A stretch of DNA of 64,000 nucleotides from an uncultured bacterium (lineage in GTDB: Bacteria > Bacillota_I > Bacilli_A > RF39 > UBA660): the NCBI GenBank assembly GCA_947646655.1, contig CANSHI010000001.1, forward strand, positions 125,570 through 189,569. Reading direction: 5' to 3'. The notes below the pieces were generated by a model. It ran no database searches. It was not told the DNA's origin and worked only from the letters and a program-made list of their open reading frames with translations. The first letter of the stretch is position 1; every line of letters begins with the position of its first letter. The translations under genes were made by a program, and so were the position numbers. Positions 968-44,484 of the stretch are shown here, piece by piece.

Positions 968-2533
968 TTAAGCATCAATACCATTTTCTCTAAAAGGATT
1001 AGTCATTGTCCCGTCTCCAATTAAAGTATTTACATAATCTGCACTCAGTGAGATAACTGGAGCTATGCCAATCATACTAGTAGCTGTAAAAGCTTCTAGT
1101 CGTCCGTCATTGATAGTAAATATGGTAGGAGAACTACCTATCAAACTACAAGGCGATAAAGTCCAAAATAAATATAAAGCTCCATTATACAGGTAATAAC
1201 TATTATTTGTTGTTTCATAATTTCCTCCTCCTGCCACAACTTCATCTGCTGTTATTAATCCTACCTTCTCTCCTAATTTTCCATTTCCTCTCTCTGTATC
1301 TTCTTTTGTAAATGCATCATTTTTCTGATCACATGTAAATTTAGGCTGTACTTTATTTACATCAGTATTCCACACATTACTTCTCGCTGTTACCCCATAT
1401 CCTGTTTTATTCGTTCCATATCCTAATCCCGTGTCATCACTCCACCCCGTTGCTTCTTTCCCTGGTGTTGTTCTATCATTACAAAATATATTATCACTTA
1501 CAAACTCATCATAGCCTTTATCTGCTATATTTGTTTTATACCAATTCTCTGTCGCCGTCTTTATATCCGAATTTACAGTATTAGTTTGGGCTTCTTCTTT
1601 ATTTGTAGAAGGACCGTTTTCAGGGCTAAACATGTACCCTGCATACTTCGCATCATTTATACCTGAATTATATATTTGATCTATTTGCACTAGCCTATCT
1701 GCACTACTTGACCCATTTACATGAGCCTGTGTTCCGTTATATATTACTCGAAGTGACCCATCGCCATTTATCCTAATTATTCTCCAATAAAATCCTGCAA
1801 ACTTTACATAGTTATCTTCAGTTGCTCCTCTATAGTAATAACTTGTTCCATAGTCGTCTTCCATTGCATATAATCCATCTGCTGTCTCATCACTCGTCGC
1901 GGTGGCTGCAAAATTTGGAATGTCTTCTTTGACTGTTTTATTTAATTTAGCTAAAGTTTTTTCTGTTGGTGTCGGATCTTTTAGTATTCCTTCTGTTATT
2001 TTAAATTGTGTCTCTAACTTTGCATTTAGATCTTCTGTCTGATCAAAATCTGTATAGTTTAAAGTTATTATGAGCTTATAATATTTTTTTACTCCCGCTG
2101 GGATCTTTATTCCACTTACTAGACCTTTGTCTTTCGTCTCTTTTGACACTGGAATATTTTTATTTGAAACTATTTCAGTAAACTCTCCATCTTCTGTATC
2201 AGACTCTAAAAAAGTATACGTCATAGATCCTTCTAAGTAGGTGTTTAACAAATTCATCCAACTGACACTTACTACTCCGTCTTTTGTTCCAGTATTCTCT
2301 ATTGTAAAAGTTTTCTCTGCACTCTCTCCAAAGTCTAATTCTCTATTGAATCCATTAGTCCCATCACTAAATATTAATTCCATTGTTCCAGTTTGTACTT
2401 TCACTTCTTGATTTTTATTTTGACCAAGCTGTCCTATAAAATATGCGTACGAACCTAAGAAGCCGACTAGTATTAGGGCACATGCTAATAGTCCAATTAT
2501 TACACCCTTTTTTACATTTTTATTTTTTTTCAT
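968..2533 (-). CDS. Secreted TasA/camelysin-like protein, paralogue 1: SipW-cognate-class signal peptide (…SYAYF…QTGTMELIFSDG) plus a roughly 330-aa conserved C-terminal domain of unknown function
   Basis: The N-terminus is K-rich, then a hydrophobic helix, then SYAYF, a TIGR04088-like pattern. The TasA-like region continues through FGESAEKTFTIENTG. The C-terminal domain is shared with 33143-35065 and 42161-43714 (YGTSYYYRGATEDNYVKFAGFYWRIIRINGDGSLR…FCNDR…KNDAFT…GLITADEVVAGG…APVISL…GDGTMTNPF). RBS gaaggga; sigma-A-like promoter at 2570-2600. Confidence 0.8.
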   Translation of the reverse strand: MKKNKNVKKGVIIGLLACALILVGFLGSYAYFIGQLGQNKNQEVKVQTGTMELIFSDGTNGFNRELDFGESAEKTFTIENTGTKDGVVSVSWMNLLNTYLEGSMTYTFLESDTEDGEFTEIVSNKNIPVSKETKDKGLVSGIKIPAGVKKYYKLIITLNYTDFDQTEDLNAKLETQFKITEGILKDPTPTEKTLAKLNKTVKEDIPNFAATATSDETADGLYAMEDDYGTSYYYRGATEDNYVKFAGFYWRIIRINGDGSLRVIYNGTQAHVNGSSSADRLVQIDQIYNSGINDAKYAGYMFSPENGPSTNKEEAQTNTVNSDIKTATENWYKTNIADKGYDEFVSDNIFCNDRTTPGKEATGWSDDTGLGYGTNKTGYGVTARSNVWNTDVNKVQPKFTCDQKNDAFTKEDTERGNGKLGEKVGLITADEVVAGGGNYETTNNSYYLYNGALYLFWTLSPCSLIGSSPTIFTINDGRLEAFTATSMIGIAPVISLSADYVNTLIGDGTMTNPFRENGIDA

Positions 2534-2569
2534 AGTTATTAAACATTCCCTTCAGTATATCCTATACTC

Positions 2570-2600
2570 ATTATATCACCCCCTTTCCAGGTGATGTCAA
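2570..2600 (-). promoter_or_regulatory. Sigma-A-type promoter of paralogue 1: TTGACA, 19-nt spacer containing G5, tgaTATAAT (extended -10)
   Basis: The minus strand reads cTTGACAtcacctggaaagggggtgaTATAATgagtatagg, about 37 nt upstream of the ATG. It is homologous to the promoter at 43751-43783, where the G-run is 11 nt. Confidence 0.5.
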
Positions 2601-2681
2601 GGGTGAGTGTTAATTCCAAAGTAAAATGAGGGAATATTTATTAAAACAAAATAAAAAAAGAAATACAAATGTATAACTTTT

Positions 2682-43714: not shown

Positions 43715-43750
43715 ACTTAAAATTATCCCTTTCAGTTTTATCCTATATCC

Positions 43751-43783
43751 ATTATACCACCCCCCCCCCCGGAGGGTTGTCAA
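43751..43783 (-). promoter_or_regulatory. Sigma-A-type promoter with an 11-nt homopolymeric G (coding strand) / C (plus strand) tract inside a 21-nt -35/-10 spacer: cTTGACAaccctccGGGGGGGGGGGtggTATAAT
   Basis: Direct reading of 43751-43783. It is homologous to the paralogue-1 promoter at 2570-2600, where the tract is G5 and the spacer is 19 nt. An 11-nt G/C run is extremely atypical in a genome of about 28% GC. Confidence 0.6.
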
Positions 43784-43820
43784 GAATGAGTTTATAAATT
43801 ATTAGTTTTAAATCACTTTT

Positions 43821-44484
43821 TTATTTATTTCTGAAAGGATTTTCCATTGTACCATTTCCTATCAATGTATTAGTATACTCTGGAGTTAATGAAATTACGG
43901 GAACTATGCCATTTATAACGTCAACATTGATATAACTGAGATTACCGCTATTATCTATGAAAAATACTCCACAAGCATTATTATAGTAAAAATAAGGAGA
44001 AAATGATGAGTATGAAATTCCTTTATATAAATAATATTTTGGATTATGTGTGCTAAACTTTCCACTTCCTGCGGTTAATATCTCATCTACTGCTAATAGT
44101 CCTATCTTTTCATCTAAAGCTCCATTTCCTTTTTCTATATCATTTACTGTGAAAGCATCGTTCTTTTTGGAACATTTAAATTGTGGTTTTACTAAACTTA
44201 TATCATTATTCCATGCGTTAGTTCTTGAAGTTCCTCCAAATGCTGTTATATTTTTTCCATAGCCTAATCCTGTATCACTGCTTAATCCTGTCGCATCTTT
44301 TCCTGGTGTACTTCTATCATTACAAAATATGCTATCTGCAACATATTCGTCTAATCCTTTATTTTTGATATTTGTTTTATACCATTCTTCTAATCTTATT
44401 TTTATGGTTGAACTTTCTGTATTGGTTTGTGCTTCTTCTTTACTTGTGCTTGGGTTAGTACCATTTGGTCCTTACATATAACCG
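43821..44484 (-). pseudogene. Promoterless, start-less 3' fragment (about 220 codons) of a fifth TasA-like paralogue, encoding only the conserved C-terminal domain; in-frame TAA at its 5' boundary
   Basis: The minus-strand translation gives GYM*GPNGTNPSTSKEEAQTNTESSTIKIRLEEWYKTNIKNKGLDEYVADSIFCNDRSTPGKDATGLSSDTGLGYG…KNDAFTVNDIEKGNGALDEKIGLLAVDEILTAG…VPVISLTPEYTNTLIGNGTMENPFRNK*. Positions 44261-44460 are about 93% identical at the DNA level to 42601-42820. Homology stops abruptly at about 44484. Confidence 0.7.

Follow-up and report, generated by a model that had tools for sequence, protein, structure and literature searches.

Scattered paralogues joining a TasA-like N-terminal part to a DUF6273-type lectin-fold domain in an uncultured gut member of the Bacilli

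We analysed a 64,000-nucleotide (nt) stretch of contig CANSHI010000001.1 (assembly GCA_947646655.1, positions 125,570 to 189,569; hereafter the window), from an uncultured bacterium of the RF39 lineage, and within it a family of putative exported proteins encoded by four intact genes, here called p1 to p4. In p1, p3 and p4, sequence comparison supports an N-terminal part distantly homologous to TasA/camelysin, most clearly in the signal and the first strands, and this part precedes a C-terminal domain (C-domain) that is a divergent and enlarged subfamily of the DUF6273 / C-type-lectin-like domains, and not a new fold. We hold these two assignments, taken together, with high confidence. A surface binding role for the proteins is rather probable, and we give about an even chance to the whole picture, in which TasA-type fibres, or at least stalks, would carry lectin heads and act as surface adhesins.

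An earlier note on this DNA had described four intact genes and one fragment, and all of these were recovered, with every open reading frame (ORF) on the minus strand. Lengths are in amino acids (aa), and a slash within a signal motif marks the predicted or reported cleavage site.

968-2533, minus strand: p1, intact ORF, 521 aa; signal, residues 1-30 (nt 2444-2533); TasA-like N-terminal segment and jellyroll, residues 31-205 (nt 1919-2443); linker; DUF6273-like lectin-fold domain, residues 226-521 (nt 971-1858)
9703-10839, minus strand: p2, intact ORF, 378 aa, sister-family member; TasA-type signal ending TYA/FF, residues 1-41 (nt 10717-10839); short acidic segment; DUF6273-type lectin-fold domain, residues 68-378 (nt 9706-10638); jellyroll absent
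33143-35065, minus strand: p3, intact ORF, 640 aa; signal ending SYA/WA (nt 34973-35065); diverged TasA-like jellyroll (nt 34511-34972); extra unassigned module of about 155 aa, residues 186-340 (nt 34046-34510); lectin-fold domain (nt 33146-34030)
42161-43714, minus strand: p4, intact ORF, 517 aa counted from ATG; signal (nt 43625-43714); jellyroll (nt 43103-43624); lectin-fold domain (nt 42164-43042)
43830-44486, minus strand: 5'-truncated paralogue between sigE and p4; C-terminal two thirds of the lectin-fold domain only

As the note had claimed, p1, p3 and p4 share a conserved C-terminal domain (about 295 aa, 59-64% identity), with a size of about 295-315 aa in place of the 330 aa first given, and with two invariant Cys residues, C148 and C196 in C-domain numbering. 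The C-domain of p2 is only 25% identical to the others, and the TasA-sized domain is entirely absent from this protein, so that it does not stand as the TasA-like paralogue that it had been taken for. The common start proposed for all four proteins (a K-rich stretch, a transmembrane helix, [ST]YAYF, YAWA or YAFF, and Q/ETGTxELxFSDG) held in part. The last motif, in its Q/ET form, was found in p1 and p4 only and is diverged in p3, and p2 has the K-rich stretch and helix followed by TYAFF. The extra module of p3 recurs in 6 loci.

The note could also assign the C-domain to no known family, and this did not hold. Direct Pfam and NCBIfam searches of the C-domain gave no match, and PDB sequence searches with the family profiles returned nothing relevant, the p2-family profile matching pilins only. 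The assignment comes instead from structure prediction, profile-profile comparison (hhalign), Foldseek and matches of distant representatives to the Pfam DUF6273 model (PF19789). An AlphaFold2 (AF2) model built from 77 homologues (predicted local distance difference test, pLDDT, 95.6; predicted template-modelling score 0.94) matches a solved DUF6273 domain on structure comparison, and phage proteins annotated as DUF6273 domain-containing rank top in Foldseek searches of predicted viral structures (BFVD). The p1/p3/p4 family, built without p2, aligns to the p2 family by hhalign with 99.1% probability (E 7.5e-19), a score to which the shared N-terminal regions contribute in part, and PF19789 itself matches 21 of the 35 members of the p2 family. 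The same model matches 9 of 55 distant C-domain representatives (best E 7.5e-13), and one of 76 close family members, at 0.0062. In the T. ramosa IgA protease, the N-terminal domain (residues 31-321) is described as an enlarged C-type-lectin-like domain, similar to Lcl and dispensable for catalysis (PMC12237041), which is labelled as Pfam DUF6273 in a second paper (PMC12402451). Compared with other DUF6273 C-type-lectin-like domains, that of the window proteins is larger, and has the additional conserved blocks FCNDRSTPG, CPxKNDAFT and GLITADE. A match of the C-domain to a well-characterised family was the result that the note had named as speaking against its reading, and it was only half obtained, because for the family matched, DUF6273, a single structure has been solved and no function is known.

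When 1.84 billion cluster representatives were searched with a profile built from the three C-domains of the window, 6550 clusters matched at E<=1e-3, and 1616 did so at E<=1e-30. With homologues in the thousands, the family is not due to chance. The proteins found are 211 to 4905 aa long, and a single one can contain as many as 24 matched stretches. Other domains in 55 of the longer representatives included Flg_new repeats (9), pilin N-termini (3) and Peptidase_M73 (3). In relatives, the same head occurs on pilin N-termini, Flg_new repeats and TasA-like modules, which is the pattern of a ligand-binding module placed on filaments or the cell surface.

For the N-terminal part, the proposed relationship to TasA/camelysin was supported. 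Of 76 family members, 46 matched Peptidase_M73 (PF12389) at E<=0.01, the best of them at 1.7e-6. Among the window proteins, p1 scored 22.4 bits against a gathering cut-off of 22.5, over residues 5-85 and thus including the signal region, p3 16.9 bits (E 0.0059, residues 39-183, profile positions 49-187), p4 16.0 bits, and p2 gave no match. Aligned by hhalign to 111 TasA/CalY proteins, which were retrieved with a TasA query 99% identical to a database protein, the family N-domain gave 94.5% probability (E 8e-8, 73 columns), against 2.3% for the C-domain used as a control. In this alignment SYA/YF falls on TWA/AF, the reported SipW cleavage site of TasA. The first strands follow in register, TGTxxL in the family standing against ASGTLDL in TasA, and FGESxTKxFTIENTG against PGDKLTKDFQFENNG. 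The AF2 model of the mature N-domain is a jellyroll (pLDDT 78), and a fold of the TasA type was found for this domain by structure prediction.

The TasA-like window proteins have in common with TasA, CalY and BsaA (of B. subtilis, B. cereus and C. perfringens) a signal and cleavage motif in register, a jellyroll and an unpacked N-terminal segment, with similarity past the first 85 or so residues lying below detection. They differ in the roughly 300 additional lectin-fold residues that follow the jellyroll, and in their genetic setting, with dozens of scattered paralogues in place of one operon and no sipW or tapA-like partner adjacent to the window genes; any fibre formation is, for these proteins, an inference.

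The signal starts with a K-rich n-region, followed by some 18-20 hydrophobic residues and then [ST]-Y-A/[YF]-F, and is distinct from the ordinary AxA Sec signals of the other secreted proteins of the window. Its terminal motif, [ST]YA[YF]F, is the most conserved N-terminal element, present in 97 of 120 homologues, and a SipW-like type I signal peptidase would probably cleave it behind the Ala. The sipW genes of Bacillus and Clostridium perfringens lie in the same operon. The window was previously reported to have no sipW, and this was upheld, as the signal peptidase I motif S-x-S-M-x-P was found in none of its six frames, and Pfam searches of its 54 ORFs of at least 100 aa identified no signal peptidase I.

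We propose that p1, p3 and p4 are modular proteins which a spore-forming, low-GC gut member of the Bacilli exports to its surface. Once the signal had been removed, the jellyroll would serve as a mounting module, and its N-terminal strand would be donated to the next subunit, as in TasA and BsaA, to give fibres bearing lectin heads along their length, or at the least a stalk. TasA polymerises by giving residues 28-38 to the next subunit, with TapA supplying the first donor strand (PMC9674648), and in BsaA of C. perfringens the donor strand comes from a disordered N-terminal loop (PMC11580942). In the window family, the first 21 residues past the predicted cleavage site are unpacked in the monomer model (pLDDT below 50), and hhalign places them on residues 28-47 of TasA, a stretch that takes in the donor strand 28-38. 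The sequence of this segment, directly after the [ST]YA[YF]F motif, is conserved. A segment that is aligned, conserved and unpacked is best read as pointing to TasA-type fibres, or at least to stalks, and judged from sequence and models we place polymerisation of the TasA-like module somewhat short of an even chance. The head of about 300 aa may bind a surface ligand, probably a glycan, of host, dietary or microbial origin.

The chief alternative, which we consider rather unlikely, is that these are monomeric, membrane-anchored, lectin-like surface proteins, in which the signal remains uncleaved as an anchor and the jellyroll acts as a stalk or as a second carbohydrate-binding module, with no fibre formed. 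It is opposed by the near-invariance of the motif that ends the hydrophobic stretch, and its register with the TasA cleavage site, by the inclusion of the signal region in Peptidase_M73 matches, and by the conservation of a segment that the monomer leaves unpacked. A hydrophobic region of similar length in TasA itself also speaks against it.

Several results weigh against lectin-bearing fibres of the TasA type. When the signal peptide is left out, the probability that hhalign gives for TasA falls to 54.8%. NCBIfam scans of the full proteins (E<=1) and of the first 70 residues (E<=5) returned neither TIGR04088, a model presumed to be in the release, nor any other SipW-type signal model, so the assignment to the SipW-cognate signal class made in the note did not find support here. 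The signal peptidase I motif was likewise not found in the window and 79 related loci, 0.96 Mb together. For the head, PF19789 has no match to p1-p4 at E<=1, and the sole solved relative (the IgA protease N-terminal domain, PDB 9qa6) is itself without known function. The C-domain is also more conserved than the N-domain, which is unusual for an exposed and diversifying head, though its variability is focused in one patch.

The sister protein p2 keeps the signal and the segment that follows it (YAFFQTPVGEDQEEVE against YAYFIGQLGQNKNQEVK), and has no jellyroll. This would fit, speculatively, either a secreted free head or a terminal subunit that only donates a strand. Its close relatives include proteins with a type IV pilin N-terminus ahead of the same head, 47 of 120 by the prepilin motif and 12 of 35 by PF07963. 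The logic is that of modular type IV pilins such as PilB and PilC of S. sanguinis (PMC8179133, PMC9934059), in which a filament-forming N-terminal module is joined to a C-terminal adhesive or lectin module. The window proteins differ from these in having neither the prepilin motif G/F-T-L-I-E, which is absent from p1-p4, nor a pilin fold, their N-terminal module being TasA-like. The window also encodes, at 22940-25369 on the minus strand, a prepilin peptidase (A24; pilD) together with a PilC/T2SSF gene, with no assembly ATPase or pilin genes seen adjacent; nothing ties these genes to p1-p4.

A more ambitious version of the fibre proposal, which is distinctly doubtful, is that dozens of paralogues co-assemble by donor-strand exchange into heteropolymeric fibres, each head with its own hypervariable patch, and that p2-type proteins act as TapA-like terminal subunits, donating a strand only. 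If true, the fibres would display a genome-encoded binding repertoire, in which gene expansion does what gut phages do to DUF6273 with retroelements.

The claim that this is an expanded family was supported. It comprises at least 3564 clusters at 90% identity. In species-representative genomes, at least 541 matches were confirmed, and several metagenome-assembled genomes (MAGs) have at least 10-12 loci each. The window's own contig, of 250,527 bp, carries at least 13 family genes. The best 80 genome matches are all in uncultured gut bins of Bacilli or 'Tenericutes', some of them titled Muribaculaceae. Several of the MAGs with many copies (e.g. contigs CAZKKM, CAZLNI and CAZXXI) bear the title 'uncultured Muribaculaceae bacterium', which looks like mislabelled bin taxonomy. 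The homologues are unnamed or annotated as 'hypothetical' throughout, and the few named sources read 'MAG: Bacilli bacterium'.

The genes of the family are scattered, mostly single, amid unrelated housekeeping genes, with 61 loci containing one copy, 13 two, 4 three and 2 four. No conserved neighbour gene was identified among the 79 related loci, and a dedicated exporter or sporulation operon was rejected as a general feature, as neither the ABC-FtsX genes upstream of p1 nor the sigE/sigG flanks of p4 are conserved in these loci. The genes upstream of p1 (2682-8183, minus strand) encode two large proteins in which an ABC-ATPase is fused to an FtsX permease (815 and 740 aa), along with a PP-loop ATPase, and lie directly beside it on the same strand. 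Between the PP-loop/ABC genes and p2/RRF, a gene at 8391-9089 (minus strand) gave weak thioredoxin-like matches (PedC/BrcD-type bacteriocin-maturation disulfide isomerase, E 2.8e-6; TraF/DUF6550), and could matter for exported proteins that contain Cys. Adjoining p3 (29785-32914, minus strand) are two surface proteins with Flg_new (Listeria-Bacteroides) repeats, which have ordinary Sec signals and end in a hydrophobic, basic tail; the arrangement is syntenic in one related locus (L032, 3009-5844), and some family members elsewhere have Flg_new repeats fused to the TasA-like and lectin modules.

The position of p4 raised the question of a role in sporulation. Together with the truncated paralogue, p4 splits a sporulation cluster, being inserted between sigE and sigG:

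41324-46006, minus strand: sporulation cluster; spoIIGA 45230-46006, sigE 44541-45230, sigG 41324-42154

Only 6 nt separate the stop codon of p4 from the TTG with which the longest sigG ORF begins, and between the two genes no terminator-like site was found, so read-through from p4 into sigG is possible. This arrangement downstream of spoIIGA is what would speak for the proteins being sporulation-specific components of the spore coat, crust or an appendage, expressed in the sporangium. We regard this as improbable, since the order sigE-gene-sigG was found in none of the 79 related loci and the other paralogues sit amid unrelated housekeeping genes. A scan for sigma-70 promoters gave 61 sites, against 60.7 expected from shuffled sequence, and thus no excess. 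The spore-surface display suggested in the note rests only on the location of p4, which is not conserved in related genomes, and so was not borne out.

The truncated paralogue beside p4 has 69% identity to residues 91-306 of the p4 C-domain (tblastn). It comprises 216 open codons with an in-frame stop just upstream, and no ATG, GTG or TTG start was found after that stop. Its use as a silent recombination cassette was rejected, as its nucleotide identity to p4 is only 71-75%, over 51-88 bp; this seems too low for gene conversion, and the fragment is more likely a truncated paralogue.

A catalytic C-domain, as an enzyme or metal-dependent modifier in place of a binding module, is very improbable. 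Its closest structural relatives are non-catalytic, namely the IgA protease's N-terminal domain, which that enzyme does not need for catalysis (PMC12237041), phage receptor-binding DUF6273 proteins and lectins, and its partner domains are typical of surface proteins.

Across 34 homologues, sequence entropy in the C-domain is mostly low, with a peak at residues 256-283, between YWSLSP and VAPVI, and smaller peaks at about 72-90 and 180-195. In a binding role, this one hypervariable patch, which differs between paralogues, would tune specificity. Phage retroelements place their variable regions at the C-terminal end of DUF6273 (PMC11792537), to which the patch at 256-283 corresponds by position. 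An ORF with reverse transcriptase-like motifs (Y-x-DD plus [ILV]GxxxSQ) was found in neither the window nor the 79 loci, and no template-repeat-like or near-identical copy of the 3' ends of the family genes was found. This indicates that the diversity comes from paralogues and not from hypermutation, in which the family differs from retroelement-diversified phage receptor-binding DUF6273 proteins such as the tentaclins and those of Faecalibacterium prophages. That the window proteins are themselves targets of a diversity-generating retroelement, or receptor-binding proteins of a prophage, is thus barely credible, a prophage origin being rejected on gene context, as the neighbours are housekeeping and not phage genes.

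Two further features of the window were noted. The gene for ribosomal protein L20 (36498-37043, minus strand) encodes a C-terminal extension of about 60 aa, which matches Rho_N/SAP-like domains (E 8.4e-9). An ORF of 858 aa (17701-20277, plus strand) lies where the GC content of the window is lowest (about 0.235) and the GC skew is reversed; it was seen in one locus only, lacks a signal peptide, is matched in neither Pfam nor NCBIfam, and may be a foreign insertion.

The note had presented the joining of TasA to an extra C-terminal module as a novel architecture. We found no description of a TasA-DUF6273 fusion in the DUF6273 literature (titles and abstracts) or in the literature on TasA and donor-strand exchange (titles), and to this extent the claim stands, while each of the two modules belongs to a known superfamily. 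The scale of the expansion in this uncultured gut lineage, which is known only from metagenome bins of mouse and other guts, also appears to be undescribed. Should the proteins indeed be lectin-decorated fibres of the TasA type, or adhesins, they would be foremost among the candidates for attaching these bacteria to mucus, food particles or other microbes. The idea of a modular filament subunit would then be carried from the type IV pilins to the TasA class, and a DUF6273 subfamily of several thousand clusters at 50% identity would gain a function, ligand binding.

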